Shown: positions 7,347-22,740 of the stretch, in pieces
Layout: the number at the start of each line of letters is the position of its first letter
Position numbering within the stretch: position 1 is the stretch's first letter
IMG/VR virus record: IMGVR_UViG_3300027708_001885
Coordinates: 38,378 to 102,377 of that record
Source: a virus
Length of the DNA stretch: 64,000 nt
Reading direction: 5' to 3' (one strand)
Made by a program: the position numbers and the translations under genes
The notes under the pieces: model-generated
Seen by the model: the letters and a program-made list of their open reading frames with translations, nothing else
The model's database searches: none
What the model was told of the DNA's origin: nothing

Positions 7347-7350
7347 CAAA

Positions 7351-9869: not shown

Positions 9870-9880
9870 TGGTCAAATAA

Positions 9881-10001
9881 AACAGGCTACTTTTTTTGAT
9901 GGCGATGAAGCCATTGCTCTACCATTGAGCGAATTTGGGAAACCCCAAATGTTGGAATCGAACCAACGTGTCATAAATGACTTTGCTGAACGTAGCCTAA
10001 A
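9881..10001 (-). ncRNA. Y-RNA-like element 2 with circularly permuted tRNA
   Basis: Terminal stem AGGCTAC/GTAGCCT, then TTCAGCAA, T arm, loop-closed acceptor stem, D arm and anticodon-like arm. Confidence 0.7.
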
Positions 10002-10003
10002 AC

Positions 10004-10079
10004 TGGTTGCAGAGCTTGGATTCGAACCAAGGATGGCAAAGGCTTATGAGACCTCGCTGGTGACCAGACCCTCTCTGCG
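10004..10079 (-). tRNA. tRNA-Met(CAU), initiator-like, reduced D arm
   Basis: CTCATAA loop, C1:A72 mismatch, TTCGAAT T loop, ACCA end. Confidence 0.8.
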
Positions 10080-10228
10080 ATAATTGGTGGAGAACATTTT
10101 TGAGGTATCCCCTATGAAGCAGATCACTGCTAACCTGTTACATCGCATTTTAGTACTATTACTTGCCCCAAAGATTAGGTACCTACCTTGGCCGCTCATA
10201 CTGGATAATGTAACTTATCCGCTGTTCT

Positions 10229-10304
10229 TGGTGGAGGATATCAGGATCGAACTGATCACCTACTGCTTGCAAAGCAGCCGCTCTCCCAAATGAGCTAATC
10301 CCCC
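10229..10304 (-). tRNA. tRNA-Ala(UGC)
   Basis: Cloverleaf, G3:U70, TTTGCAA loop. Confidence 0.93.
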
Positions 10305-10309
10305 TAATA

Positions 10310-10387
10310 TGGTCGGACATGTAGGATTCAAACCTACGACCCTCGCGTCCCAAACGCGATGCGCTAATCAGGCTGCGCTAATGTCCG
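10310..10387 (-). tRNA. tRNA-Pro(UGG)
   Basis: Cloverleaf; TCGCG-TTTGGGA-CGCGA. Confidence 0.9.
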
Positions 10388-10517
10388 AAAATAAATTAGG
10401 GCACAACTATCTATCCTTACAGGACCAATAACACTTATTACCGTATTACTGACGACCATTGTTATTTAAAATTAGCACAGCGTCGACTAAGGACTAGAAG
10501 TGCTGATCCCCTAAAAC

Positions 10518-10593
10518 TGGTACCTGGTGACAGACTCGAACTGTCATCGCTCTCCGTGTAAAGGAGACGTATAACCTCTCTACGCAACCAGGC
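10518..10593 (-). tRNA. tRNA-Val(UAC)
   Basis: TCTCC-TTTACAC-GGAGA; TTCGAGT T loop; ACCA end. Confidence 0.88.
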
Positions 10594-10600
10594 AAAAATA

Positions 10601-10674
10601 TGGAGCGAGGTAGGAGAATCGAACTCCTCGCTTTAGATTGGAAATCTAAGGTATTGCCACTATACGAACCCCGC
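10601..10674 (-). tRNA. tRNA-Gly(UCC)
   Basis: TTAGA-TTTCCAA-TCTAA; TCCA end. Confidence 0.92.
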
Positions 10675-10676
10675 AT

Positions 10677-10759
10677 ACTTTATTGAAACACACTAACCGC
10701 TCTGTTCCTACTGTATGCCTACAGTTTGTATCCATTCGTTTAATACGTTTCAATAAAGT
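10677..10759 (-). repeat. hairpin cassette A (AAACACAYU/AGUGUGUUU family)
   Basis: About 19-bp stem whose G-U pairs form only on the minus strand; 45-nt insert. Confidence 0.7.
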
Positions 10760-10965
10760 GTCTAGCTACCTACACCACATAGGCCCTAGACTGAGCGGTC
10801 TACTCTGTCTACGTATTTCTTCTTTTGGAAAAGGTTAGCGTTCCCCACCCAATGCGTTTCCAGTATCCCCCAACAGGGACTGATAGTCAATGCACTGCAC
10901 ACTTAGCACTCTCTATGGTGACTGCCCCACCCACTTTCATAACGTCAAAGTGTAACCCGGGTTTC

Positions 10966-11040
10966 TGGTGCCGAATGTCTGGTTCGAACAGACGACCTAT
11001 CGCTTACAAGGCGATTGCACTACCGCTGTGCTAATTCGGC
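10966..11040 (-). tRNA. tRNA-Thr(UGU)
   Basis: ATCGC-CTTGTAA-GCGAT. Confidence 0.93.
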
Positions 11041-11050
11041 TTAAATCTAT

Positions 11051-11323
11051 TTAACCACCTTGTGTGGTATCTCGTACTTCGCTATCTTTGCGAAGTTCTT
11101 CTTCCAACCATAACATCTTTTGATGCCGATACATGTCTTCGCTCAATCCATGCCAACCAATACATTTGCCAGTTGGACTACGACCACAACCGCATGAACC
11201 AAATTCTTTTGGATTTTCTTTAACTCTTACTTGCATATCTTTCTTTCCAAAAATTACATCATAGTTATTGCCAAACTCTTTTTGGCTAACACTATACGGA
11301 CGAGGTCTACTGCCTTTGCTCAT
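11051..11323 (-). CDS. small protein with CDGSH-like Fe-S/Zn motif
   Basis: CGCGRSPTGKCIGWH resembles the CxCxxSxxxPxCDGSH motif. Confidence 0.6.
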   Translation of the reverse strand: MSKGSRPRPYSVSQKEFGNNYDVIFGKKDMQVRVKENPKEFGSCGCGRSPTGKCIGWHGLSEDMYRHQKMLWLEEELRKDSEVRDTTQGG

Positions 11324-11553
11324 CAGCGGACTCTCTTTAAATACTCACGTCCTACAAGTCCTGCTTCAATTTCTTGAAGTGCAGTAATAGTTGGACTGTT
11401 GAGTCCCATGACCTGTTTAGCATGACCACGGCGTAATTCTCGAACTCGAGCAGCCGCGATCAATACTAGATCAAATCTATTGCCTACCGCTTCGACACAT
11501 TTATCCGTGTCAATGTTTTGCGGCGAAAACTTTGTCTTAATTATTTGTACCAT
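11323..11553 (-). CDS. rpoZ: RNA polymerase omega subunit homolog
   Basis: CVEAVGNRFDLVLIAAARVREL...TITALQEIEAG. Confidence 0.88.
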   Translation of the reverse strand: MVQIIKTKFSPQNIDTDKCVEAVGNRFDLVLIAAARVRELRRGHAKQVMGLNSPTITALQEIEAGLVGREYLKRVR

Positions 11554-11579
11554 TTGCTACCTTTTGTTGAAAAAACTTT

Positions 11580-11654
11580 TGGCTCCTCAGACTGGGATCG
11601 AACCAATGACCGATCGGTTAACAGCCGATTGCTCTACCGCTGAGCTACTGAGGA
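11580..11654 (-). tRNA. tRNA-Asn(GUU)
   Basis: ATCGG-CTGTTAA-CCGAT. Confidence 0.95.
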
Positions 11655-11664
11655 ATATATTGTT

Positions 11665-11952
11665 TGGTGCTCCGAGCCGGACTCGAACCGGCACACCTTG
11701 CGGCGAGAGATTTTCTTACCACTATAGTTTTCACTACCCTTGCGGTTTGATGGTCTGGACTATACCTTCATCATAGTATTACTACTTTAGATGCCCGCCG
11801 TCTAGTCTCTACACGTTCCCTTTCGGGCTTCGCTCGGTATTAGCATTTTACAGCCTTCACCGAATTTGACGGGTTCTACTCCTAGCATTTCCACTAGGGC
11901 ACTCAAATTTTACTCTCAAGTCTCTTGTGTCTACCTATTTCACCATCGGAGC
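11665..11952 (-). tRNA. tRNA-Leu(UAA) split by a group I intron (exons 11918-11952 and 11665-11714)
   Basis: Splicing gives AGAGA-CTTAAAA-TCTCT with a long variable arm and ACCA end. Confidence 0.92.
11715..11917 (-). mobile_element. group I intron (IC3-like, ORF-less, 203 nt)
   Basis: Inserted after U34 and ends in G; core motifs AATTCGGTGAA, AATACCGAGC, TGTAGAGACTAGACGG and AAGGTATAGTCC. Confidence 0.92.
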
Positions 11953-11960
11953 ATTACCAA

Positions 11961-12035
11961 ATTAAAACATACTACTAACAGGCGGTCGATATCAGCGTTA
12001 GCCAAGTCACTTACCCGTATGCAGTATGTTTTAAT
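11961..12035 (-). repeat. hairpin cassette B
   Basis: ATTAAAACATACTGC/GTAGTATGTTTTAAT stem; 45-nt insert. Confidence 0.7.
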
Positions 12036-12036
12036 A

Positions 12037-12112
12037 TGGTGCCCTAGGAGAGACTCGAACTCTCAGAACCTGGTTTCTAAGACCAGTACGTATACCATTC
12101 CGTCACCAGGGC
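12037..12112 (-). tRNA. tRNA-Leu(UAG) lacking a long variable arm
   Basis: CTGGT-CTTAGAA-ACCAG; 76 nt total. Confidence 0.88.
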
Positions 12113-12158
12113 ATATATTTTTTAACGAACGTTGCTAAACTTGTTAGCCTATGTGTTT

Positions 12159-12187
12159 ATTATACAGGGTATTTAACAACCTGTCAA
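12159..12187 (-). promoter_or_regulatory. sigma70 consensus promoter internal to the tRNA array
   Basis: TTGACA-17 nt-TATAAT, followed by boxA-like GTTCGTTAAAAA at about 12119-12130. Confidence 0.85.
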
Positions 12188-12203
12188 CCCCTATCTAAAT
12201 TAA

Positions 12204-12423
12204 TTTGTTAAAGTAGTGTCACCATCGTTATAGACACCATTCACCCGTGTAATTAAGCCGGCCGGGACTCGGTACGTCACTTGGGATACTAGTCCAGATG
12301 ATACCCATTGTATGCCGATGCAATCAAGCGATCAGCCGGGTAACGACCCCGCATCCTTCTACTGTTTTGGTCCTTCGAAGAAACCTAGACAGCGTGACAT
12401 TCTCTTGCTAACACTCTAACAAA
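12204..12423 (-). ncRNA. candidate structured ncRNA (~220 nt)
   Basis: GC-rich non-coding segment closed by TTTGTTAGAGT/ACTTTAACAAA, with internal GTCAC/GTGAC and GTGTC/GACAC pairings. Confidence 0.5.
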
Positions 12424-12427
12424 ACTT

Positions 12428-12497
12428 GGTGCACCTAACAGGAATCAAACCTATCTACGTTTGGCTTCAAATCCAACTCGCAATGTCAATCCAGCGC
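12428..12497 (-). pseudogene. degenerate tRNA-like sequence
   Basis: T arm ATAGG-TTTGATT-CCTGT and ACCA end; D arm and acceptor pairing poor. Confidence 0.45.
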
Positions 12498-12578
12498 ATA
12501 AAAATAATCAAGAGCTTGTAGACCAAACTACAATTTACCGGTTTCTAGACGAATTCTCAAACTTGGTGTGTGATCAAA

Positions 12579-13301
12579 TTACCTGGCCCGAACCCACGAA
12601 TAATACCCTCCGTGACTTCCATTGATCAGGCTAAAATGATTTAGATACGGGTGATCTGCAGGGGGATACTTCAAATCAAATTTTGGTTTTGCCCCCAACT
12701 CACTGCTGATTTCTTCTATGACATCTCGGTCCTTGACATTCAACACATCCAGTACTAGTGTGCCGCCTACTTTGAGGCTTTTGAGTGCCTTGTCCCAGTA
12801 GTACTCCTTGGGATAATGCCAGCACCAAGAAAACATAGAAATTATAAGATCTACGTCAGCCGGCCAATCATCGTCGGGTGACAAGATGTTGAATTTATTT
12901 TTGTCCACTTCGGGACTAGTCAACGATTCGTTAAAAACTTCCCACAGATTGTACGAATAGTATTCTTTAGAATAATATGTTGGCTGACTAGGGAATTCAA
13001 CTGTTGTTTTGTCAACTAGAAAAAATTCAATATTTTTGTTTAGATGATGCAAAGTTAAATCAAATGTAGCTATTCCGCTACCAACATCAATTACTTTTTT
13101 TAAATTGGGTACATCAATGTGATTTGATGTTCTATTCCAATTCCCCAATGCAGTATCTTCCAATCTTTTGAAGAATAACTCTCGAGTATTGAATTCTTTC
13201 CAATGTTGCGGGCCTGTTTGCAATTTTGCCACCAGGGATAGTTTGTTGTAATTTTGCCAATAAATTCGTTTGTTGCTGATGGGTAATGATATGCTGTTCA
13301 T
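12579..13301 (-). CDS. class I SAM-dependent methyltransferase
   Basis: VIDVGSG, DLIISMFSWCWHYP, LKVGG. Confidence 0.75.
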   Translation of the reverse strand: MNSISLPISNKRIYWQNYNKLSLVAKLQTGPQHWKEFNTRELFFKRLEDTALGNWNRTSNHIDVPNLKKVIDVGSGIATFDLTLHHLNKNIEFFLVDKTTVEFPSQPTYYSKEYYSYNLWEVFNESLTSPEVDKNKFNILSPDDDWPADVDLIISMFSWCWHYPKEYYWDKALKSLKVGGTLVLDVLNVKDRDVIEEISSELGAKPKFDLKYPPADHPYLNHFSLINGSHGGYYSWVRAR

Positions 13302-13325
13302 ATCAATATTTAGTTTTATCAGATT

Positions 13326-13871
13326 TTAGAATTTGTTTTTGTACACTGCAAAACTTTTGTACTTTCTGATACTACGTTCTATCAGCAACTTGTGCTTTTC
13401 TCTATCAAGAGAACCTTCAATATACAATGTAGTACGGTCTGGATCTTCTCGAACACGATGTACACACGATGTTAGATCTAATGCATAGGCAAATGGAGCA
13501 TTTGGTAAAATTGGAGTAATCCAATCAGTACCGTTATATACTTCAAGTGAATTATTTTTTCCCTGTAATAAAATATGATACCCTGCCGGCTCTGTAGATT
13601 TAATTAAATCTAATTTTTCTGGGGTAGAGTTTTTTATATCGTGATCTATATGTGGACCGACTGCTTTTAATTGCACCTTATATGTAAATATTTCTACTTT
13701 GGAAAATGGTAATTGATCAAACAACCAGTTATATTCAACATAGTTATTTTCTTTACCTAAAATAGTTCGTGTTCTCCAAAATTTCTGTCGAGCACTAACA
13801 TGGTAATCACCCAATTTAAACGTTGGGTTATTTGGTATTGTTATGTCTAGTGGAACAAATAATAATGTCAT
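13326..13871 (-). CDS. hypothetical protein, cupin/2OG-oxygenase-like
   Basis: PHID...H...R pattern; start moved to MTLLF because the annotated extension overlaps tRNA-Tyr. Confidence 0.6.
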   Translation of the reverse strand: MTLLFVPLDITIPNNPTFKLGDYHVSARQKFWRTRTILGKENNYVEYNWLFDQLPFSKVEIFTYKVQLKAVGPHIDHDIKNSTPEKLDLIKSTEPAGYHILLQGKNNSLEVYNGTDWITPILPNAPFAYALDLTSCVHRVREDPDRTTLYIEGSLDREKHKLLIERSIRKYKSFAVYKNKF

Positions 13872-13882
13872 ATTTTTATTTA

Positions 13883-13967
13883 TGGTGGAGTGTACTGGGA
13901 TCGAACCAGTCATGCCCGAAGACGGCGGAGTTACAGTCCGCTGCACCACCATTGGTGCGTCCACTCC
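13883..13967 (-). tRNA. tRNA-Tyr(GUA)
   Basis: GCGGA-CTGTAAC-TCCGC with long variable arm. Confidence 0.88.
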
Positions 13968-13972
13968 ATATA

Positions 13973-14065
13973 TGGTACCAGCGGAGAGGATCGAACTCTC
14001 TCAAGAACGCTAATCTGGCGCTGAAAAGATTTATAAAATCTCTCTGACTTCCAAGTCTCGCTGGC
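13973..14065 (-). tRNA. atypical tRNA with UAU (Ile) anticodon, mini D arm and long variable arm
   Basis: GCCAGCG-A-GACT-TGGA-AGTC-A-GAGAGAT-TTTATAA-ATCTTTT...TTCGATC...ACCA. Confidence 0.75.
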
Positions 14066-14144
14066 ATATATAAACACACTTTATGCTTTGGGAATAACAT
14101 TTCTGTTAAGCAACCATCAACGGTTACGAAGTGTGTTTATATAT
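14066..14144 (-). repeat. hairpin cassette C
   Basis: Perfect 16-bp ATATATAAACACACTT/AAGTGTGTTTATATAT stem; 47-nt insert. Confidence 0.75.
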
Positions 14145-14219
14145 GGCGTCCCTAACGAGATTCGAACTCGTGTACCCGACGTGAAAGGCCGGTGTCCTAG
14201 GCCTCTAGACGATAGGGAC
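14144..14219 (-). tRNA. tRNA-Glu(UUC)
   Basis: CCGGC-CTTTCAC-GTCGG; GCCA end. Confidence 0.95.
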
Positions 14220-14234
14220 AAATTTTACTGTTAA

Positions 14235-14246
14235 TTGTTAAAGAGC
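14235..14246 (-). promoter_or_regulatory. boxA antitermination element
   Basis: GCTCTTTAACAA matches the rrn boxA consensus and lies between promoter and tRNA. Confidence 0.75.
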
Positions 14247-14272
14247 GTATGTTAATTTCTTAACATGTGTTT

Positions 14273-14301
14273 ATTATAGCATAGTTTTCTAACGGTGTCA
14301 A
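14273..14301 (-). promoter_or_regulatory. sigma70 consensus promoter
   Basis: TTGACA-17 nt-TATAAT with extended -10 TG. Confidence 0.88.
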
Positions 14302-14302
14302 G

Positions 14303-14376
14303 TGGTGCTCAAGTAAAGAATCGAACTTTAATTTCCAACGTACCAAGTTGGTGTACTACCATTGTACTACAAGAGC
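14303..14376 (-). tRNA. tRNA-Thr(GGU)
   Basis: CCAAC-TTGGTAC-GTTGG; two U-U mismatches in the acceptor stem. Confidence 0.85.
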
Positions 14377-14391
14377 ATTATAAATAAAATT

Positions 14392-14877
14392 ATGCAAGAA
14401 AATTATAAACCTGTTGATATCAAATATGATAGAAATACTATAATGAATATTTTACAATCAGATAATAAAAATATTGTTAGACCGTGCTCTGTAGTAGAAA
14501 GATTTAGAATATCTAAAATATTGAATTTAAAAGACCCTATAACAAATATATTATACTTTCAAATGAATAAAGAATTTATAGGTGATATCCATAAAGATTA
14601 TACAGGAGAATATTATATAACTCATGCACTGATTTTACCGTTAATGGGTTGTAAAGCCACACATATGAAATGGTTTTTCCAAAACAATAATGTTACCAAC
14701 AATTCATTGTTAGGACCGACTGGGAAACCAATTCCTTTGTTATTGCATAGTAATGCGACCTGTATAGATACTGTCAATTGCAATACTCCCATTATAGTTA
14801 AGATAGATGATTGGCATTCAATTGAAAATAATTCAATTGAAGAGGTTAGTCATCTTATAAGTATAAGATTTGAGTAA
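14392..14877 (+). CDS. hypothetical protein, cupin/2OG-oxygenase-like
   Basis: IHKD...WHSIEN pattern; start at MQENY after TATAAATA. Confidence 0.6.
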   Translation: MQENYKPVDIKYDRNTIMNILQSDNKNIVRPCSVVERFRISKILNLKDPITNILYFQMNKEFIGDIHKDYTGEYYITHALILPLMGCKATHMKWFFQNNNVTNNSLLGPTGKPIPLLLHSNATCIDTVNCNTPIIVKIDDWHSIENNSIEEVSHLISIRFE

Positions 14878-15773
14878 TGGAGCATATTATAAATATCTAT
14901 ATGAAAATAACACCTATAAAAGATTCTTGGGGCTGCACTATTGAATTTGATAATCCTATGGATTTTTTTCAATATGACAATAACTACTGGCGTGATATGT
15001 TATATAGGAAAAAAATAATAATTTTTAAACGTATGAATTTTGAATTATTAGATTTTGCAAAATTTGGAACATACTTTGGGTCACCTTGGGACAAATGCGA
15101 TTACACATACAGCCGTGAAATAGGATTAACATGTGAAGATGTTGATAAAAATTATAGTGTATCTCATTTCAGTAATAAAATTCTCGGAATAGCAGATAGT
15201 GAAATGCCATGGCACGCTGATATTCCAAACCGAAGTTATAATCCTTATCCCCATAGAGCTTTATGGATTGTTAAGAATCCCAATCCTGATATATCGGGAA
15301 AAACAAAATGGCTCAATATTGAGGATTGTTTTAAACACTTAACTCCTAAGATGAAAGAATTATTGCCTAGAGTTAAGATAGAACAACAAAGTTGGTATGC
15401 ACCCGGCACCGATTTAGGAATTTATGATTTTATTAAAATACACCCTATTACAAAAAAACCAAGTTTGCGATTAAACTTTTATAATACAGATAAAATGAAA
15501 GGTGCTTGGATTAAAAGTGTCTATATTGATAATGAATTGCAATCTGATTGCAGTGTGATAAAAATGTTTATTGAACATTTAGAAAAAATTCCCGAGCTAG
15601 TACATTATCACCAATGGGACAACCAGGATATAGTTATATATGATAATTGGTCTTTTTTACACGGACGTACAGCATTACAGTTAGGCAACACTCCCGATAC
15701 TCAAGAACGTGCATTTTATAGGATGAATATTGATCATGTTGCTAATGATGTTTGGAACAATCAAAATATCTGA
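14877..15773 (+). CDS. TauD/TfdA family dioxygenase
   Basis: WHAD, HPIT and W...DIVIYDNW..LHGR motifs; true start may be 14901. Confidence 0.85.
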   Translation: MEHIINIYMKITPIKDSWGCTIEFDNPMDFFQYDNNYWRDMLYRKKIIIFKRMNFELLDFAKFGTYFGSPWDKCDYTYSREIGLTCEDVDKNYSVSHFSNKILGIADSEMPWHADIPNRSYNPYPHRALWIVKNPNPDISGKTKWLNIEDCFKHLTPKMKELLPRVKIEQQSWYAPGTDLGIYDFIKIHPITKKPSLRLNFYNTDKMKGAWIKSVYIDNELQSDCSVIKMFIEHLEKIPELVHYHQWDNQDIVIYDNWSFLHGRTALQLGNTPDTQERAFYRMNIDHVANDVWNNQNI

Positions 15774-16342
15774 TTTCCACCTTCGACTGCAATATCGACA
15801 ATAAGATGTATTCTAAAATCATCACCGTTGTTTATTAATTGATGAGGCAATCTATTATTAAGCTGACTTAACATTTTAAAAGGCATATGCTCAGTAATAG
15901 AAGAATCTTCTCCACTGAATAATACCATATTGTTTGTTTTAAACGGTATATGAAATCTTGAATACATTTCAAAATAATCACAAGGATCAGTATGCAGACC
16001 AACCTGACTTTTTGATTCTAATCGTACAATCATTATTCTTCCTAATGCAATACCATCAACTTGTTTATAAATCCATTCAGATGCTAAACATGCATTTTTG
16101 TATATATCGGTAGCAGGAAAATTATTTTCGCATTCTGTAATCATGCACCATTCTTCAAGTGATGTTGGCAATTTGCCTTTTGGTATTTTATTTCCTCGAA
16201 TATGAATGGCTTTGCTGGTATTGAACACGGAATTCCGTCTACTAGGATCTAAAATAGTTTCCCATTGAATAGTGTTTATTTCCTCTAACGCAGAAAAAAA
16301 TATACAATCAGGCACTTCGGTAATTGTTTTAACTAACGGCAT
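15761..16342 (-). CDS. aspartyl/asparaginyl beta-hydroxylase-domain oxygenase
   Basis: GRIMIVRL, HTD, RFHIP, H...N...RIHLIVD. Confidence 0.75.
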   Translation of the reverse strand: MPLVKTITEVPDCIFFSALEEINTIQWETILDPSRRNSVFNTSKAIHIRGNKIPKGKLPTSLEEWCMITECENNFPATDIYKNACLASEWIYKQVDGIALGRIMIVRLESKSQVGLHTDPCDYFEMYSRFHIPFKTNNMVLFSGEDSSITEHMPFKMLSQLNNRLPHQLINNGDDFRIHLIVDIAVEGGNQIF

Positions 16343-16358
16343 ATATTAATTTATGCAT

Positions 16359-16433
16359 TGGTCTCGCCACCAAGGATCGAACTTGGATCAAAAGTTTAGG
16401 AAACTTCTATTCTATCCATTGAACTACAGCGAG
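16359..16433 (-). tRNA. tRNA-Arg(CCU)
   Basis: GAAGT-TTCCTAA-ACTTT. Confidence 0.9.
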
Positions 16434-16435
16434 AA

Positions 16436-16510
16436 TGGTCCGGCGTAACAGAATCGAACTGCTGTTTAGGAGGTAGAAGCTCCCTGTATTTTCCACTATA
16501 CGAACGCCAG
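16436..16510 (-). tRNA. tRNA-Arg(UCU)
   Basis: GGGAG-CTTCTAC-CTCCT. Confidence 0.9.
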
Positions 16511-16513
16511 ATG

Positions 16514-16587
16514 TGGTAGGTCATGACGGTATTGAACCGCCGTATCTTGGATGTCGACCAAGCACTCTACCTTTGAGTTAATGACCT
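16514..16587 (-). tRNA. tRNA-Val(GAC), C at position 33
   Basis: CTTGG-TCGACAT-CCAAG. Confidence 0.85.
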
Positions 16588-17253
16588 ATGTTTATTGTTG
16601 CTTCTTCCAAAATTCCAACCATGTGGTAACGGATCTGTTTCTAAATGAAGTTTGTCATCCACTCCGTCTGTTATAAACTTTCTATTTTTATATGATGCCG
16701 AACCTGCATTCAAAAAATGTTTGCTATTTTTTCTTCCATTTATTGATTTTATTTCAGCACTATGAACTTCGCAATAACTAGCAAATCTTGTCTTTACTGG
16801 CAACTCACAGCAGATACATTTTTTGATTTCAAAATTTATTTTTCTTCCCAAAATCCAACCATCTGGCAATTCTTTGCTAATTGATATTTTTTTAGATACT
16901 TTTAATTCCGAGTTATAAATCCATTTTGTTCCAAACTGAGTATTTCCCGACCCTGTTTGTTTTTTGCTCTGAGCTTTAGAAAGTTTTCTTCTAAGCCATC
17001 CGTATAATTTATTTGATGGGCGATTAGCAACCATCATTACAGCGGCATGTAATAACGCAGAATTGTCTGGATTTATTTTCACTAGTAACTGATGTGCCAG
17101 ATAATGTTCTTCTGGTGTAAGATATACTAAGTTAATTTTATCATCCTTTCCACCTAGACATCGTGGTACAATGTGATGCCACTCACCGTATTCATTTAAC
17201 GTTCTTACTGATGCTCGAATAACAAGGTTATCGTATATTTTTTGATAGTTCAT
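16567..17253 (-). CDS. HNH homing endonuclease
   Basis: MNYQKIY..., EWHHIVPRCLGG.D...NLVYLTPEEHYLAH; stop codon lies inside tRNA-Val. Confidence 0.88.
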   Translation of the reverse strand: MNYQKIYDNLVIRASVRTLNEYGEWHHIVPRCLGGKDDKINLVYLTPEEHYLAHQLLVKINPDNSALLHAAVMMVANRPSNKLYGWLRRKLSKAQSKKQTGSGNTQFGTKWIYNSELKVSKKISISKELPDGWILGRKINFEIKKCICCELPVKTRFASYCEVHSAEIKSINGRKNSKHFLNAGSASYKNRKFITDGVDDKLHLETDPLPHGWNFGRSNNKHRSLTQR

Positions 17254-17275
17254 ATTGTATTTACCATCAAGTTTC

Positions 17276-17315
17276 ACCGTGTCGAGGTAGTGTTCTACCA
17301 TTAAACTAAGGACCT
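17276..17315 (-). pseudogene. 5' half of a tRNA-Val(GAC), truncated by the HNH insertion
   Basis: AGGTCCT-TA-GTTT-AATGGTA-GAAC-A-CTACC-TCGACAC-GGT, then unrelated sequence. Confidence 0.75.
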
Positions 17316-17323
17316 GAATAGGT

Positions 17324-17473
17324 TTTCGAGAGACCAGCTATCTTTCTGAAGGACTCACTGGCTTGTCTCGTATGAGCGAGTTTAAACTACCCTGTATAAT
17401 TCTACTGGTGTGTCATGCATCAGCCTAATGCACTAGAATACAAGGGACTCGAATCTCTACGTCTATCTCGAAA
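17324..17473 (-). ncRNA. candidate structured ncRNA (~150 nt)
   Basis: Terminal TTTCGAGA/TCTCGAAA stem with nested helices and a possible pseudoknot. Confidence 0.5.
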
Positions 17474-17474
17474 C

Positions 17475-17595
17475 TGGTGCCGCTGCTGGGATTCGAACCC
17501 AGATAACCCCCTTGACATGGATTAAGAAAATTGCTGAACGTACTCTATACAGAGTCACCCTTTTATAAGGTGTCCTACCATTAGGCGACAGCGGC
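17475..17595 (-). ncRNA. CCA-ended tRNA with the UUCAGCAA module inserted in its anticodon arm
   Basis: Acceptor GCCGCTG/CAGCGGC, TTCGAAT T loop and ACCA end; about 45-nt insert containing ACTCT-GTAT-AGAGT-AC-GTTCAGCAA. Confidence 0.75.
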
Positions 17596-17602
17596 AATAA
17601 CT

Positions 17603-17677
17603 TGGTGGTAATGACTGGATTTGAACCAGTAACACTCTCCGTATGAAGGAGGAAGACTACCATTGTCCTACATTACC
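17603..17677 (-). tRNA. tRNA with CAU anticodon (Met or Ile2)
   Basis: CTCC-TTCATAC-GGAG; ACCA end. Confidence 0.85.
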
Positions 17678-17759
17678 ATATAGAAACACACTGGCTTGCA
17701 AGACTCCTACTAACCTTTCGATAGATGTCGCAGTTAGTATTCAATGTGTTTTTATATGG
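17676..17759 (-). repeat. hairpin cassette D
   Basis: CCATATAAAAACACATTG/CAGTGTGTTTCTATATGG stem; 48-nt insert. Confidence 0.7.
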
Positions 17760-17793
17760 TAGGGGTTTTATGAGTTGATGCATAAATAAGTGT

Positions 17794-18702
17794 ATGCCTA
17801 ATTATACAACATTTACATGTTCTTGCATAGTCTGCAAACAACCAAAAACCTCAAAAGGTATTCATTCTCATTATCTCATTTCTCATACAGAAGAAGGACG
17901 AGCAAGAAATCGTAAAAATCGTCTTGCTGGTGGATTATTAGGTTCTGAAATTGCTAAACAAAATGCACAGCAAATTCAAAATCAATATTTAGAAAATCCT
18001 AACAAATGCAAACAGTGCGATGTCTCTCTTACATACGAGCAGCGTCATAATAAATTCTGTTCAACATCCTGTTCGGCAAGTTTTTACAACAAGGATCGAA
18101 AAGGTGTTGCTCTAGATACTGCTGTGAAACAAAAGATTTCAGATAGTGTTAAAAAGTTTAATCTAGAAAATCCTTACACCAAATCAAAACAGATGTTTAG
18201 CAGACTATCGTATTGTTGTATATGCAACTCTGTCATACAAAACAAAATTGTTAAAACTTGTTCTTCTAAATGCAAGTCAGTGCTGTTATCAAACAACATG
18301 TCCGATAGAATCAAACAAAACAGAAGAAGTAATTATCGCAGAGATAAAAGATCTTATCTCGAAGAATCATTTGAAACTTGGTTGTTGGATAACAACATTT
18401 CTCTAAAATATGAAACTGAATACACTATTAAAAATCATATTACACAGAAATGGTATTTCGTGGATTTCTACTTTCCCGAAATAAATCTTATAGTTGAACT
18501 TGACGGGAAACAGCACGAAAAACCTAAACACAAAGAAGCAGACAAACTTCGTGATGAATACATCACTACTAATCTAAACTTAAATGTTTTTAGAATTTCT
18601 TATGATGAATATCAAGCTGGTTCTAAAATAAACGAATTACTAAAATTATTGGTGAGGCAGGTGGGGTTCGAACCCACAAGGAGATTTCTCTCGCCAGATT
18701 AA
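17794..18702 (+). CDS. Zn-finger + DUF559/Vsr-like PD-(D/E)xK endonuclease (homing-type)
   Basis: Repeated CxxC and FCSxxC motifs; YFVDFY...IVELDGKQH...D..RD; ends antisense within tRNA-Lys. Confidence 0.82.
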   Translation: MPNYTTFTCSCIVCKQPKTSKGIHSHYLISHTEEGRARNRKNRLAGGLLGSEIAKQNAQQIQNQYLENPNKCKQCDVSLTYEQRHNKFCSTSCSASFYNKDRKGVALDTAVKQKISDSVKKFNLENPYTKSKQMFSRLSYCCICNSVIQNKIVKTCSSKCKSVLLSNNMSDRIKQNRRSNYRRDKRSYLEESFETWLLDNNISLKYETEYTIKNHITQKWYFVDFYFPEINLIVELDGKQHEKPKHKEADKLRDEYITTNLNLNVFRISYDEYQAGSKINELLKLLVRQVGFEPTRRFLSPD

Positions 18703-18737
18703 AAGTCTGGTACCGCAGCCACTTCGGTGTCTGCCCC
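18650..18737 (-). tRNA. tRNA-Lys(UUU) with long variable arm
   Basis: CCAGA-CTTTTAA-TCTGG; variable arm CGAGAGAAATCTCCTT. Confidence 0.82.
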
Positions 18738-18741
18738 ATAT

Positions 18742-18815
18742 TGGTCCCACACCACGGTAATGATCCGTGTTTTACCGGTTAAGAGCCGGTTACATCACCT
18801 TAATGTTTGTGAGGG
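18742..18815 (-). tRNA. tRNA-Lys(CUU), atypical T loop
   Basis: ACCGG-CTCTTAA-CCGGT; T loop ATCATTA. Confidence 0.78.
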
Positions 18816-18876
18816 TTAGTTGTATTAAATTGATTTAATGTGCCAACCCTAGACCAATACGGGATCTAGAGCGACA

Positions 18877-18897
18877 CTAACGTTTAGCACGTTTCAT
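18877..18897 (-). CDS. minigene MKRAKR* with strong SD and a hairpin at the stop
   Basis: AAAGGAGA-5 nt-ATG AAA CGT GCT AAA CGT TAG. Confidence 0.5.
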   Translation of the reverse strand: MKRAKR

Positions 18898-18925
18898 ATC
18901 GTTCTCCTTTGAACATAATTAAAAT

Positions 18926-19001
18926 TGGTACCAAGAGTCGGGATCGAACCGACCACACCCGATTCTTCAGACCGGTGCTCTACCAACTGAGCTATCTTGG
19001 C
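18926..19001 (-). tRNA. tRNA-Phe(GAA)
   Basis: CCGGT-CTGAAGA-ATCGG. Confidence 0.93.
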
Positions 19002-19012
19002 ATTGATGAATA

Positions 19013-19105
19013 TGATAATAGGGGTGACCACTGAGAAGTCTCACTCAGACTACAACTTTCACAGAGTTGGGTGCCAATTTTACACTATGGTCACCCCTAT
19101 TATCA
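19013..19105 (-). tRNA. tRNA-His(GUG)-like, atypical T loop, acceptor extended to an 18-bp stem, no encoded CCA
   Basis: CAACT-CTGTGAA-AGTTG; G-1:C73; T loop TGAGACTT. Confidence 0.7.
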
Positions 19106-19112
19106 CATAAAC

Positions 19113-19187
19113 TGGCAGGGGCTGAAGGTAACGCTCCTTCTCACCTAGTTTCAAAGACTAGTATCTGCTCTTATCGATTTAACCCCT
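19113..19187 (-). tRNA. tRNA-Gln(UUG), atypical
   Basis: CTAGT-CTTTGAA-ACTAG; T loop AGCGTTA; AGGGG/CCCCT-G acceptor. Confidence 0.72.
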
Positions 19188-19193
19188 AAATAT

Positions 19194-19255
19194 AACAGGA
19201 TGCTTATTTTTCAATTAACAGTTGAATTGGATAAGTTTGCTGAACGCATCCTAAA
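19194..19255 (-). ncRNA. Y-RNA-like element 3 carrying an isolated GUU anticodon hairpin
   Basis: AGGATGC/GCATCCT stem, TTCAGCAA, TTCAA-CTGTTAA-TTGAA. Confidence 0.7.
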
Positions 19256-19257
19256 AC

Positions 19258-19333
19258 TGGTACCCTACCCTGGTTTCGATCCAGGTACCCCCGCCTTATC
19301 AAGACGGTGCTCTCCCAATTGAGCTAGTAGGGC
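19258..19333 (-). tRNA. tRNA-Ile(GAU)
   Basis: CCGTC-TTGATAA-GGCGG. Confidence 0.9.
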
Positions 19334-19338
19334 ATATT

Positions 19339-19416
19339 TGGTGCGTCCCGAGAGGTTCGAACTCCCGACCCCCGGCTTCGTAAACCAGTGCTCTAATCCA
19401 GCTGAGCTAGGGACGC
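19339..19416 (-). tRNA. tRNA-Arg(ACG)
   Basis: CTGGT-TTACGAA-GCCGG. Confidence 0.93.
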
Positions 19417-19424
19417 ATTAAATT

Positions 19425-19500
19425 TGGAGTAGGTAACAGGAGTCGAACCTGCATAAAACAGATTTGCAATCTGCCCCCTAGCCTTTCGGGTCATACCTAC
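19425..19500 (-). tRNA. tRNA-Cys(GCA)
   Basis: GCAGA-TTGCAAA-TCTGT; U73. Confidence 0.9.
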
Positions 19501-19507
19501 ATAATAA

Positions 19508-19573
19508 AACAGGATCAACTTTTTAGTTTCTGGATAAAAGAAAGTTTGTTAGTTTTGCTGAACTGATCCTAAA
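19508..19573 (-). ncRNA. Y-RNA-like element 4 carrying a 5-bp/7-nt hairpin
   Basis: AGGATCA/TGATCCT stem, TTCAGCAA, TTTCT-TTTATCC-AGAAA. Confidence 0.65.
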
Positions 19574-19575
19574 AC

Positions 19576-19651
19576 TGGTCTCTCCTGTGGGACTCGAACC
19601 CACGAAATCCTCGCCCCAAACGAGGTGGCATAGCCGCTAACCGAAAGAGAG
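19576..19651 (-). tRNA. tRNA-Pro(UGG), second copy
   Basis: CCTCG-TTTGGGG-CGAGG. Confidence 0.88.
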
Positions 19652-19692
19652 ATAAAATTAACATGATCAATACCACTATATAAATATGTGAT

Positions 19693-20343
19693 ATGAAAAA
19701 AATAGGAATTGCAATTACCGGGGAAATATACAGTATACCCCGACCCGGCTTTGTTCATCAACGTAATTGGACATTAACCAGGGACAATATCAAAACCAAT
19801 TTAATTGGTTCTTTTGAAGAAAATAATGTTGTTAATGTTTACACTACAACATATGAAAATGAAAAAGTAGAAGAAGTAGTTAAATTTTATTCACCTACTA
19901 AATCTTTAGTGCTATCTCCTGAAGGTAGTCATCAAAGACTTACCTACATTAAGAGCATGGAAAATCTTTTAGATCAAGATCTAGATTTTATCATAGCAGC
20001 CCGATTTGATCTAGCGTTTGATCAAGAAGTTGTTAACTTCAATTGGGATTATGATAAAATGAATTTTGTTTCTAAGGAAATGATGGGCTGGGAAACTTTA
20101 CAGTTTGTCACAGACACATTCTTTGGATTTCCTAAAAAATATCTACAATCTTTTATCAATAGCATTAAAAATTCACATGCTCATCTTGAAGAAACACAGC
20201 CTGGAAACATCGGTGTTCATTACATGCACGATATCTACAGGCATATGGTCATGGAAGTCAATAACGAAAATATACATTTCCTAGTTCCTGACAAGCAATG
20301 GGCTAATCAAATTCCGGGTATGTATAGGATAGTTAGAGCCTAA
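19693..20343 (+). CDS. hypothetical protein (GT-like, RFD motif)
   Basis: KIGIAITG...DFIIAARFDL; preceded by TATAAATA. Confidence 0.65.
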   Translation: MKKIGIAITGEIYSIPRPGFVHQRNWTLTRDNIKTNLIGSFEENNVVNVYTTTYENEKVEEVVKFYSPTKSLVLSPEGSHQRLTYIKSMENLLDQDLDFIIAARFDLAFDQEVVNFNWDYDKMNFVSKEMMGWETLQFVTDTFFGFPKKYLQSFINSIKNSHAHLEETQPGNIGVHYMHDIYRHMVMEVNNENIHFLVPDKQWANQIPGMYRIVRA

Positions 20344-20346
20344 AAT

Positions 20347-20421
20347 TGGCATCCCCTGTTCGATTTGCACGAACCCTGGTGATTTTGGAGATCACTGTGC
20401 TGCTGCTGACACTAAGGAGAT
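20347..20421 (-). tRNA. tRNA-Trp(CCA)
   Basis: GTGAT-CTCCAAA-ATCAC; G73. Confidence 0.85.
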
Positions 20422-20427
20422 ATAAAA

Positions 20428-20515
20428 TGGCGGAGCGTGTAGGAATCGAACCTACTCACCCATTTCTGGATGACGGGTTAGCAACCCGCTGCCTTGACCG
20501 GTCGGCCAACGCTCC
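20428..20515 (-). tRNA. tRNA-Ser(GCU)
   Basis: GCGGG-TTGCTAA-CCCGT; long variable arm. Confidence 0.93.
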
Positions 20516-20521
20516 TAAAAT

Positions 20522-20635
20522 TGGTACGACTGGTAGGTCCTGCCCCTACAAGGGCTGCGAGTTATACTCATCGCCCCGGCCCCATTCCGTGCTATAAGCA
20601 CAGCGGGAGGTCTGCTATATTCCACTCACAGTCGC
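20522..20635 (-). ncRNA. tRNA-like RNA (114 nt) with enlarged anticodon and variable arms
   Basis: GCGACTG/CAGTCGT-ACCA acceptor; T stem GTAGG/CCTAC with a GGCAGGA loop. Confidence 0.65.
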
Positions 20636-20642
20636 ATATATA

Positions 20643-20670
20643 ATTATACACGAGTTAAGTAGAATGTCAA
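20643..20670 (-). promoter_or_regulatory. sigma70 promoter
   Basis: TTGACA-16 nt-TATAAT. Confidence 0.75.
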
Positions 20671-20676
20671 GTTATT

Positions 20677-20771
20677 TGGTGGAAAGCGGAGGAGTCGAAC
20701 CCCACCCTGTTCTTCACAAGGACCCAGTTTTCAAGACTGGTCGGGGAACCAACTCCCCTGCATCACTTTCC
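20677..20771 (-). tRNA. tRNA-Ser(UGA) with 8/4 Sec-like fold
   Basis: 8-bp acceptor GGAAAGTG/CGCTTTCC, 4-bp T stem, 6-bp D stem with TTGG loop, CTTGAAA anticodon loop. Confidence 0.78.
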
Positions 20772-20777
20772 ATTATT

Positions 20778-20854
20778 TGGCGGTCCCAAGGGGATTCGAA
20801 CCCCTGCCGACGGCGTGACAAGCCGCTGTACTGACCAGGCTATACTATGGGACC
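20778..20854 (-). tRNA. tRNA-Asp(GUC)
   Basis: GCGGC-TTGTCAC-GCCGT. Confidence 0.93.
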
Positions 20855-20860
20855 TAAAAC

Positions 20861-20936
20861 TGGCGCCACAGACGGGAATCGAACCCGCCTCGATCGGATA
20901 GACAATCCGGTGCCCTACCCAGAGGACTACTGTGGC
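20861..20936 (-). tRNA. tRNA-Asp(GUC), second copy, U37
   Basis: CCGGA-TTGTCTA-TCCGA. Confidence 0.85.
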
Positions 20937-20940
20937 ATAT

Positions 20941-21015
20941 TGGCATCCTGCACGGGTATCGATCCCGTTCCTACACCTTGAAAGGGTGTTGATCTAGCCA
21001 GTAATCTAGCAGGAT
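20941..21015 (-). tRNA. tRNA-Glu(UUC), second copy
   Basis: ACACC-CTTTCAA-GGTGT. Confidence 0.85.
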
Positions 21016-21021
21016 ATAATT

Positions 21022-21096
21022 TGGTGCTCTGTTACGGAATCGAACCGCATTCTGATGCTTACAAGACACCTGCATCGCCATCAATGCTTACAGAGC
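21022..21096 (-). tRNA. tRNA-Thr(UGU), second copy
   Basis: GGTGT-CTTGTAA-GCATC. Confidence 0.85.
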
Positions 21097-21101
21097 CAAT
21101 T

Positions 21102-21176
21102 TGGTGGAGGCCGAGGGAATCGAACCCTTCTAGTCACGATCCTTGCAAGGGAACGCCGCAGCCCACTGCTGCCCCC
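21102..21176 (-). tRNA. atypical tRNA-Ala(UGC) with mini D arm
   Basis: GGGGGC-A-GCAG-TGGG-CTGC; CTTGCAA loop; G3:U70; ACCA end. Confidence 0.75.
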
Positions 21177-21711
21177 AAATTATATCTTGCCATCTGATAG
21201 CATTCTTACTATCATAATCAAGCCTATTATTTTTGCTTTGATTATCTCGAGCCGGCAAGTATTGTAAATTATCCTGATGATGAAGTCCACCTTTTGATAA
21301 TGGTACCTTGTGGTCGACTTGGAATCCTTCAGGAACAAATTGATAAATTTGTCTAATTAAAATTAAATCAGCATCGTCAGGTATCGCATTTCTTTTCCGT
21401 GCTCTGTAAGCATAGACATTTGCTTTATTGCCTGCTTTTTTATGTTCTTCAGACACCCTGCCTTTTTTATCCCAGTAAGCATTTCTACCTGCTGAAATTT
21501 TTGTAGAGTGCTCTGCTGTCCTTGGAGGAAGTTTTACACCCTTTCTGTTTGGCATTTTTGCCTTACCAGAAATAATTGCTTCCTTAACACCTTTAGCAAT
21601 TTTTTCTTTAGTATCTGCTGTTCTAATTCTGCTGTTAGCACATGCTCTTGAGCAAAATTTTCCAGATCCAAAGGATCCATTGTGTTTGGCATCGCATTTA
21701 AAACATATCAT
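21130..21711 (-). CDS. HNH homing endonuclease with N-terminal Zn finger
   Basis: GSGKFCSRACAN and VDHKVPLSKGGLHHQDNLQYL...N; stop codon inside tRNA-Ala. Confidence 0.88.
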   Translation of the reverse strand: MICFKCDAKHNGSFGSGKFCSRACANSRIRTADTKEKIAKGVKEAIISGKAKMPNRKGVKLPPRTAEHSTKISAGRNAYWDKKGRVSEEHKKAGNKANVYAYRARKRNAIPDDADLILIRQIYQFVPEGFQVDHKVPLSKGGLHHQDNLQYLPARDNQSKNNRLDYDSKNAIRWQDIIWGQQWAAAFPCKDRD

Positions 21712-21766
21712 AATAGTTCTCCCAATTGTATTTATACAATTGAACTCATCTACTACAAATTACATA

Positions 21767-21842
21767 TGGCTCCATCTGTTGGATTCGAACCAACCTCTTC
21801 CGGTTAACAGCCGGGGGTACTCACCGAGAATACTAAGATGGA
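21767..21842 (-). tRNA. tRNA-Asn(GUU), second copy
   Basis: CCGG-CTGTTAA-CCGG; GCCA end. Confidence 0.87.
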
Positions 21843-21853
21843 ATAGAATATTT

Positions 21854-21940
21854 TGGTGGAACCCCAAGGAATCGAACCTCTTGCCACCACCCACCTTATT
21901 TTGGCTACGATTTTACAGACCGCAAGCGGGAAAGGGCTCC
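21854..21940 (-). tRNA. D-armless tRNA-like RNA with GUA (Tyr) anticodon
   Basis: GGAGCCC/GGGTTCC acceptor, 9-nt linker in place of the D arm, TGCGGT-CTGTAAA-ATCGTA, TTCGATT T loop, ACCA end. Confidence 0.7.
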
Positions 21941-21943
21941 ATT

Positions 21944-22181: not shown

Positions 22182-22334
22182 TTAACGACCTCCGCAGAGC
22201 GTCTCTCGCTTTCTCATAGCTTCATAACTTTGAACAGCTCTTGCCAACTTGTTCTCAAACAACTGTTTAAGTTGTTCAGGAGTTAGCGTATGCTGTCTAA
22301 GCCATTCAGCTTGTTTGATCTTTTTACTGTCCAT
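22182..22334 (-). CDS. small basic hypothetical protein (50 aa, MDSKKIKQAEWLRQHTL...)
   Basis: Hand-translated ORF immediately after the terminator. Confidence 0.5.
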   Translation of the reverse strand: MDSKKIKQAEWLRQHTLTPEQLKQLFENKLARAVQSYEAMRKRETLCGGR

Positions 22335-22350
22335 TTTCTTTTTGGAAAAC

Positions 22351-22382
22351 AAAAAACCCCAGGGTTCTTAATCCTGGGGTCC
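22351..22382 (-). terminator. intrinsic terminator (attenuator) at the head of the tRNA array
   Basis: GGACCCCAGG-ATTAAGAAC-CCTGGGGTTT followed by TTTGTTTT. Confidence 0.88.
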
Positions 22383-22405
22383 TTGGAAGTTAAAATGTAA
22401 TCTAG

Positions 22406-22549
22406 TTACACTTTGGTCTCCTGGGACCCCGAGTTAATCTCCGGTGTGCGATCATAACTTGACAGACTATTAATCGCTAACCAGCTGGCGGACATGCATC
22501 CAACCTGTTTGGCTATCGTATTAAAATGTTGTCTTTGTTGCGATTGCAT
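22406..22549 (-). CDS. putative attenuator leader peptide (47 aa; all 20 amino acids)
   Basis: MQSQQRQHFNTIAKQVGCMSASWLAINSLSSYDRTPEINSGSQETKV*; its 3' end overlaps the antiterminator strand GGGGTCC. Confidence 0.72.
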   Translation of the reverse strand: MQSQQRQHFNTIAKQVGCMSASWLAINSLSSYDRTPEINSGSQETKV

Positions 22550-22607
22550 TTTGTTTTCTCTTTAAACCTTTGTTTACATCGACAGCACCATTGCTGCCTA
22601 TGTGTTA

Positions 22608-22636
22608 ATTATACATTTATTTAGTCTCGTTGTCAA
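22608..22636 (-). promoter_or_regulatory. sigma70 promoter P2 of the tRNA array
   Basis: TTGACA-17 nt-TATAAT. Confidence 0.88.
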
Positions 22637-22711
22637 CCACTATTTGCAAGTTTGGCAAAATATTTTAAAGTATTTTGCTTTTTTGCCTACAATGCTTGCT
22701 AACTAGTCTCT

Positions 22712-22740
22712 ATTGTACAACAGTTTTTCACTGCTGTCAA
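22712..22740 (-). promoter_or_regulatory. sigma70 promoter P1 of the tRNA array
   Basis: TTGACA-17 nt-TACAAT. Confidence 0.8.

Follow-up and report, generated by a model that had tools for sequence, protein, structure and literature searches.

Classical leader peptides (trpL, hisL, pheL, leuL, thrL and ilv) contain runs of one to three regulatory amino acids, and their 1:2 pause/anti-antiterminator hairpin makes termination the default state when there is no translation. T-box leaders, for which translation is not needed, bind one specific uncharged transfer RNA (tRNA) directly, using a specifier loop together with the T-box sequence. The reasons for which phages carry tRNAs are a long-standing subject of debate and, to our knowledge, the regulation of phage tRNAs is largely unexplored; full-text searches of the literature returned no description of leader-peptide control of phage tRNA genes. 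Here we describe a unit in a stretch of 64,000 nucleotides (nt), hereafter the window (positions 38,378 to 102,377 of IMG/VR virus record IMGVR_UViG_3300027708_001885), in which a leader open reading frame (ORF) of 47 codons encoding all 20 amino acids precedes two alternative RNA structures, an antiterminator and an intrinsic terminator, and a tRNA array. The unit, at the head of the array, is likely to be a transcription attenuator of the ribosome-mediated (leader-peptide) kind, with a leader that tests the whole decoding apparatus, and the phage probably transcribes more tRNA when a shortage of any one tRNA slows ribosomes.

The nearest precedent is the whiB7 (wblC) attenuator, which is governed by its upstream open reading frame (uORF). 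In M. smegmatis this uORF encodes 19 of the 20 amino acids, its composition decides which starvations are sensed, and when it is deprived of Trp or His codons the response to that starvation is weakened or abolished (PMC10274678).

Leader ORF and its amino-acid coverage

The leader ORF (22406..22549, minus strand) was found to comprise 47 codons and a UAA stop, encoding the peptide MQSQQRQHFNTIAKQVGCMSASWLAINSLSSYDRTPEINSGSQETKV. It uses 34 distinct codons, with W, C, H, F, Y, D and P occurring once each and three Ala among the 47 residues, and the last of the 20 amino-acid types to appear is E37, at codon 37. In these respects the sequence agrees with an earlier note on this DNA (the original prediction), which had described the ORF, its peptide, its single-copy residues and its 34 codons and had placed all 20 amino acids within the first 37 codons. 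Taken alone, such a sequence is only mildly unusual, since all 20 amino acids are present in about 3% of random 47-mers with the composition of this phage (11.5% with a uniform composition) and in 2.7% of unrelated ATG ORFs of 42–52 codons in the available DNA. These frequencies dispose of the concern that random 47-codon ORFs commonly hold all 20, and the weight of the observation comes from its conservation in relatives.

Relatives were obtained by a peptide pattern (26 viral contigs) and then by a nucleotide-anchor scan of viral contigs, which returned at least 118 stretches, many of them chance matches. Only loci with GATCG and the terminator motif were kept, leaving 66 loci with 37 distinct sequences; counts of loci given here are among the matches listed. 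At least 37 distinct copies of the leader-switch unit, 36 of them complete, were thus found in viral loci. A second set, independent of the nucleotide anchor, came from a hidden Markov model (HMM) search of 1.84 billion cluster representatives, in which 81 matches were obtained at E <= 0.001 and 77 were usable. These matches are lineages from separate clusters at 50% identity, so that at least 77 diverged relatives carry the leader peptide. Thirteen small proteins in a large protein collection are 72–84% identical to it. The peptide has conserved motifs (IAKQ, W and DRTPE) and no match to a Pfam or PHROG family.

The leader frame (frame 0) is open from the ATG to the antiterminator helix in all 36 complete distinct loci, while frames +1 and +2 are open in none of them (0/36). 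In the relatives the leader is an ATG ORF of 42–52 codons, with the ATG located 30–36 nt 5' of the anchor in all cases. Gaps between the ATG and the helix are, by eye, multiples of three, and gaps of 1 and 2 nt occur after the helix arm. Retention of the leader as an ORF in relatives, which had been named as a check on the original prediction, is thus observed, with the ATG always present.

All 20 amino acids were found in 39 of the 47 unique leader peptides, each of the remaining eight missing one (Cys in seven, Leu in one). The HMM representatives gave a comparable picture, with the full set in 57 of 77 and at least 19 amino acids in every one. When alignment columns were shuffled, a procedure which keeps the make-up of each column and breaks compensation within a sequence, 13.7 ± 2.7 complete peptides were expected and none of 5000 shuffles reached 39. 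Among 18 representatives with less than 70% identity, 14 are complete against 4.7 ± 1.65 expected (0/5000 shuffles), and among seven with less than 60% identity five are complete against 1.8 expected (18/5000 shuffles). A tree-aware simulation, in which an equal number of changes per column was placed on a FastTree tree, gave 13.8 ± 7.6 complete peptides, with one of 1500 runs reaching 39. Cys is spread over 15 alignment columns, yet exactly one copy is present in 34 of the 47 peptides, and His, spread over nine columns, is absent from none of the 47. Full coverage despite drift is therefore found, as had been anticipated, with rare residues at differing positions between lineages, and by these comparisons it is actively maintained by selection. 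For the leaders without Cys, no tRNA-Cys was found within 10 kb in L011 and L017 and one was found in L008, these loci being incomplete.

Coverage was also observed at the level of codon boxes. Both boxes of Arg (AGR, CGN), Ser (AGY, UCN) and Leu (UUR, CUN) are represented in 35 of 36 leaders, in most of which Arg codons number only two and Leu codons two or three. Synonymous codons redrawn from the usage of the family gave 12.6 ± 2.8 leaders with both boxes, and none of 5000 redraws reached the observed number; for 17 representatives with less than 70% identity both boxes are present in 16, against 6.1 ± 1.9 expected (0/5000). AUA, AUY and an internal AUG occur in 36 of 36 leaders, AUA being part of the search anchor. 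This suggests that the leader samples tRNA species and not amino acids alone, which may explain some of the conservation at codon level.

Antiterminator, terminator and predicted position of the ribosome

The predicted intrinsic terminator (22346..22380, minus strand, with its stem at 22351-22380) consists of (A)CCCCAGG, a 9-nt loop, CCUGGGG(U) and the tract U6GU4, a sequence which occurs once in the window. A simple terminator scan missed it because the loop limit of the scan is 8 nt. A GC-rich stem of 7–8 bp plus a U tract is present in all loci, with 98.7% of alignment cells paired, and is nearly invariant. The alternative structure is formed by the antiterminator 5' arm GGGGUCC (22424..22430, minus strand) and the 3' arm GGACCCC (22376..22382, minus strand), of which ACCCC also belongs to the 5' arm of the terminator. 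The stop codon UAA of the leader (22406..22408, minus strand) is located inside the antiterminator loop, near the apex of the hairpin. Both the long hairpin with its stop near the apex and the mutual exclusivity of the two structures were as originally described.

The antiterminator helix has seven of seven pairs in 33 of the 36 complete copies and six of seven in the remaining three. In an alignment of 22 sequences 96% of cells are paired and compensatory changes were found at four of the seven pairs, far above shuffled and slid controls. The double changes are of the type GC to AU and CG to UA, for example GGGUUC/GAACCC and GGGCUU/AAGCCC. At one shared position C is replaced by U; the terminator pair is kept as U.G and the antiterminator partner changes from G to A. 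In the alignment this position behaves as expected of a nucleotide with two alternative partners. Covarying antiterminator pairs overlapping the terminator, another check named with the original prediction, are accordingly present in the relatives. RNAalifold on the MAFFT alignment returned only the terminator and two sequence-conserved helices and not the antiterminator helix; this can be attributed to the gappy loop of the antiterminator, and the helix was therefore tested explicitly. When the RNA was folded as it stands before the 3' arm of the terminator emerges, 33 of 36 loci had the antiterminator helix in their minimum-energy fold (p about 1). For the complete RNA the two states are almost equal in energy, with means of -29.5 and -28.7 kcal/mol (less than 1 kcal/mol apart).

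An internal hairpin domain is located within the ORF (22442..22483, minus strand; UGGU...ACCG and GCGAU...AUCGC). It is conserved in sequence, with 97–99% of cells paired and no compensatory changes within it, and could be an RNA-polymerase pause or synchronising hairpin, or a set of fixed test codons (W-L-A-I-N-S-L...D-R-T-P). The leader region (22340-22640) gave no Rfam match at E <= 1, T-box included, and the same was true of the equivalent region of L007.

In all loci the stop codon lies inside the antiterminator loop, 15–34 nt after the start of the 5' arm and 20–34 nt before the 3' arm. This placement holds even though the peptide varies most in its C-terminal tail. By the geometry of the window, a ribosome with any of codons 38–47 in its aminoacyl (A) site would block the 5' arm, the boundary falling at codon 37/38. 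The sensing part of the leader would consist of codons 1–37 (22439..22549, minus strand), where an occupied A site leaves the 5' arm free. In 28 of 35 leaders a codon for each amino-acid type is found 9 nt or more 5' of the helix, against 5.4 ± 2.1 leaders complete at this distance when the order of the peptide is shuffled (0/3000 reach 28). At a distance of at least 12 nt, completeness drops to six of 35 leaders, and this boundary of 9–12 nt corresponds to the reach of a ribosome's leading edge when such a codon occupies the A site.

Promoters, tRNA array and neighbouring genes

The two tandem near-consensus sigma70 promoters of the original prediction were borne out. P1 (TTGACA-17-TACAAT; 22712..22740, minus strand) has 11 of 12 consensus matches and P2 (TTGACA-17-TATAAT; 22608..22636, minus strand) has 12 of 12, with a predicted transcription start near 22601. 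A TTGACA-N17-TAnAAT promoter is found 46–97 nt 5' of the conserved anchor in every locus which includes upstream sequence. The promoters of relatives are usually two in tandem, the second being about 100 nt upstream of P2 in most. The P2 transcript is predicted by folding to begin with a stem-loop (22576..22603, minus strand), which shows compensating changes among relatives (alignment by eye) and is absent in a near-leaderless subgroup; 3' of it a purine tract is followed by the leader ATG at 22549. The whole P2 transcript folds far better than shuffled sequences (z = -5.6). The order on the minus strand is P1, P2, stem-loop, leader ORF, antiterminator/terminator, ORF2 and tRNA array.

In the subgroup just mentioned (L021, L024-L027, L045 and L138) the leader ATG is located about 10 nt after the -10 box (TACAAT), so that the leader messenger RNA would be nearly leaderless, and tRNA-Met and tRNA-Leu(UAA) are found immediately 5' of the promoter. 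An AT-rich hairpin, UUGUUGUAAAAAUACAACAAAA, is present in the window at 22758-22780 (minus strand), just 5' of P1 and 3' of the upstream gene, and recurs 5' of the promoters in L004, L007, L008, L011, L017 and L019.

The co-directional tRNA array (7272..21941, minus strand, identified with ARAGORN) contains 34–36 tRNAs together with homing-endonuclease and other ORFs and internal promoters. It had been predicted to serve all 20 amino acids; tRNAs for 19 of these were found, and no tRNA-Gln was detected in the window with ARAGORN or by BLAST with the tRNA-Gln genes of relatives. ARAGORN scans of 23 loci placed the unit, in every case, 200–2200 nt (mostly less than 1 kb) 5' of a co-directional tRNA array, and these arrays have up to 37 tRNA genes. 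Almost no tRNA is found 5' of the unit, the exceptions being the tRNA-Met/tRNA-Leu subgroup and, in L002, a single tRNA-Arg about 7 kb upstream. This places the unit at the head of the array. Internal sigma70 promoters at 20643-20670, 14273-14301, 12159-12187 and 9138-9166 (minus strand), inside or beside the array, each have 12 of 12 matches. The first three had been predicted and the fourth is additional, and most of the array is freed from the switch by them, in line with the proposal that its distal parts are transcribed independently.

ORF2 (22182..22334, minus strand) encodes 50 amino acids and starts 18 nt after a CTGGGGTTTT motif at the 3' end of the terminator. It is present in 23 distinct loci, 18–20 nt after the same motif, and absent from the others. 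The proteins of this family have 47–58 amino acids, are probably helical and share the motif HTLTPEQ..KLIQDKLERA. ORF2 has no Pfam or PHROG match, and neither a PDB profile search nor the ESM Atlas yielded a meaningful one. It may contribute to the response, since no other gene lies between it and the switch. ORF2 of the window also contains all 20 amino acids, a feature which is not kept in more distant relatives and which was put down to chance. In loci without ORF2, a tRNA-like element with a GGGGUUCGAAUCCCC T-arm was observed after the terminator (L007:5540-5570).

Several further RNA genes were noted. A tRNA-Trp (20347-20421, minus strand), missed by both ARAGORN and the Rfam listing, was found by BLAST; over 75 nt it shares 96% identity with tRNA-Trp from L002. 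The tRNA-Leu(UAA) gene at 11665-11952 (minus strand) carries a group I intron within it (Rfam Intron_gpI, 61 bits at 11734-11921); when introns were permitted, ARAGORN reported the gene as Leu(taa) with a 203-nt intron. An odd tRNA-like gene at 17475-17595 (minus strand; Rfam tRNA, 36.8 bits over 118 nt), called 'SeC(tca)' with a 27-nt intron by ARAGORN in the same mode, could be an intron-bearing or suppressor-type tRNA. Between ORF2 and tRNA-Asn there is a weak tRNA-like match (21857-21941, minus strand; Rfam tRNA-Sec model, 25 bits), which had earlier been labelled a D-armless Tyr-like tRNA. In relatives, transfer-messenger RNA genes (ARAGORN) are located a few kb 5' of the switch (L014:6582-7005 and L016:584-962), and L016 has a CUA-anticodon (amber suppressor or 'Pyl') tRNA at 1207-1280.

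The source record is 102 kb in length, and the window is its last 64 kb. The record is rated about 22% complete, which suggests a very large phage as the source; it is an uncultured giant lake phage. The region and its neighbours gave no match in the INPHARED phage collection in DNA and protein searches, and a search of viral contigs with the neighbouring radical-SAM protein gave no relative. The window also encodes a full-length Hsp70/DnaK homologue (56418-58295, minus strand; Pfam HSP70, E = 1e-259), sugar-modifying enzymes and a B12-radical-SAM protein.

Proposed mechanism, alternatives and known attenuators

In the proposed mechanism, transcription would start at the strong promoters P1 and P2 and a ribosome would translate the 47-codon leader as RNA polymerase moves ahead. 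With prompt decoding, the ribosome at codons 38–47 or at the stop would occupy, or would already have melted, the GGGGUCC arm and the inner hairpin. GGACCCC would then be freed, the CCCCAGG/CCUGGGG terminator would form, and the transcript would end at about 22346-22356 with a length of about 250 nt. If the ribosome were delayed at codons 1–37, or never loaded, the GGGGUCC/GGACCCC helix would form first; this would sequester ACCCC, no terminator would be made, and transcription would run into ORF2 and the tRNA genes. As every amino acid is represented among codons 1–37, together with both boxes of Arg, Ser and Leu, the two Ile decoders and an internal Met, a shortage of nearly any charged tRNA should raise tRNA transcription. 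Such a shortage could be caused by starvation, codon-usage mismatch or host tRNA-cleaving defences, and the circuit would be a negative-feedback loop on decoding capacity.

The attenuator interpretation put forward in the original prediction is supported by these sequence comparisons. More tentatively, the leader might be a pan-tRNA sensor at the level of tRNA species and an inducible counter-defence against anticodon nucleases or tRNA depletion, a proposal to which we give somewhat less than even credence. If true, this would be a virus-encoded, damage-triggered repair circuit for the translation apparatus, in which ORF2 and replacement tRNAs are switched on.

The attenuator reading builds on the observed anatomy of the unit, its conservation, the covariation of its antiterminator, the selection on its coverage and its link to tRNA arrays. 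A number of points weigh against it. Translation of the leader and the natural trigger are inferred, and the coupling of stalling to read-through is taken by analogy from leaders of the trp/his type and from the uORF of whiB7. Only 9–14 nt separate the helix from the last codon required, as a rule the GAG of DRTPE; this is close to the limit of what would remain uncovered by a stalled ribosome. The only Cys codon of L004 lies 3' of the helix arm. With a ribosome on the stop codon the 5' arm is just outside the footprint, so that blocking of the helix then rests on steric reasoning. No anti-antiterminator is evident in the unit, and the default without ribosomes would therefore be read-through, unlike in trp- and his-type leaders. 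In a minority of relatives one amino acid, mostly Cys, is missing; six codons of the leader are for Gln, yet no matching tRNA was found in the window; and because of the four internal promoters only ORF2 and about nine tRNAs (to 20670) are strictly behind the switch. In addition, the ORF blocks AUAGCCAAACAGG, UGGUUAGCGAUUAAUAGUCU and GAUCGCACACC are conserved even at synonymous sites, which exceeds the needs of a pure rule of one of each amino acid. Part of this is an effect of retrieval, and codon-level sensing or a further function of the RNA may account for another part. Since the anchor was used for retrieval, an artefact contributes to the invariance of IAKQ/AUAGCCAAACAGG, and the HMM search shows variation in this motif.

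Metatranscriptome cover of the window consists of contigs only, over small shares of the stretch, and uncovered parts are uninformative. One lake contig spans only 22333-22615 (one mismatch, one gap), a span between P2 and a point shortly beyond the terminator. A second contig, which comes from a different study and represents a relative of about 92% identity, extends from 22596 through the terminator to 22111. The two give a weak hint of both RNA forms, short and read-through, with the reservation, also to be set against the attenuator reading, that such contigs cannot define RNA ends and that DNA carry-over is possible.

The same attenuator could report general translation capacity or coupling and not the supply of individual tRNAs, its rich composition being a by-product. 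The inputs would then be ribosome availability, host shut-off and translation-inhibiting toxins or antibiotics. Without a ribosome the antiterminator forms first and is equal to the terminator in stability, so that any global loss of translation would also give read-through, and the whiB7 attenuator is known to respond to many translational stresses (PMC10274678). A sensor of this kind, however, has no need for every amino acid, for both boxes of Arg, Ser and Leu or for a repertoire placed 5' of the helix. As coverage, codon boxes and 5' placement are all under selection, we consider it unlikely that general capacity is all that is reported.

It is more improbable still that the leader is an ordinary small phage gene with a functional product of 47 amino acids, the hairpin being a 3' stabiliser and the adjacency to tRNAs an inherited gene order. 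The conserved motifs IAKQ, W and DRTPE would fit such a gene, as would the mostly synonymous substitutions in the conserved blocks (by eye) and a unit with its own strong promoters and terminator. It would leave unexplained, however, why all 20 amino acids are kept up by relocation of residues, why the variable C-terminal tail is without unique residues (the Cys of L004 apart), and why the stop is always within a covarying helix which shares ACCCC and is isoenergetic with the terminator; the peptide also belongs to no Pfam or PHROG family. A non-coding structured RNA (a small RNA or riboswitch-like leader) with an incidental open frame would agree with the fold of the P2 transcript (z = -5.6), the blocks conserved at nucleotide level and the several conserved or covarying helices, but is very hard to reconcile with a frame open in 36/36 loci against 0/36 for the others, gaps that look in-frame, an ATG kept even in near-leaderless variants, selection on amino acids and codon boxes which makes sense only for a frame that is read, and the lack of an Rfam family match.

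If the attenuator reading is true, the unit would be a natural decoding test of the whole code wired to tRNA supply, and a means by which a virus controls translation capacity through feedback. It could reveal in what way giant phages detect starvation, codon mismatch or tRNA-cleaving defences. With its sigma70 promoters, 47-codon ORF and single switch helix it would also be a simple model and, possibly, a compact synthetic sensor of decoding stress. Ribosome-mediated attenuation would be extended from amino-acid biosynthesis and resistance regulators to tRNA genes.

Comparison with known systems places the unit closest to whiB7. A uORF close to the promoter, an antiterminator and an intrinsic terminator are common to the two, and in both models stalling leads to read-through. 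The whiB7 system, however, is bacterial, occurring in mycobacteria and other Actinobacteria, and the product under its control is a transcription factor that serves drug resistance and alanine metabolism. Its uORF is enriched in Ala and variable in its set of amino acids, whereas the phage leader has one to a few of each and conserves full coverage. The two have no sequence relationship, and in the phage context ORF2 and tRNAs are found downstream. In the parts of two reports that bear on this, the subject is phage tRNA sets as a counter-defence against tRNA-cleaving host systems, with anticodon-loop changes and evasion of retron and other effectors (PMC10264068; PMC11555353). These parts concern the tRNAs themselves and provide a motive for quick replacement of a depleted tRNA.

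Like the T-box, the unit would turn tRNA charging into a choice between antiterminator and terminator and would control genes of the decoding apparatus; in the phage, however, sensing would be done by the ribosome and would extend to all tRNAs. With the classical leaders it shares a short leader, mutually exclusive helices, a stop codon placed so as to favour termination after complete translation, and an output supplying what the ribosome is short of. It differs from them in having no runs and no enriched amino acid, all 20 being sampled, and in controlling tRNAs and not biosynthetic enzymes. The phage unit thus stands outside both the whiB7 and the classical families, with no homology to them, different genes under its control and no enrichment, and yet it would work like them.

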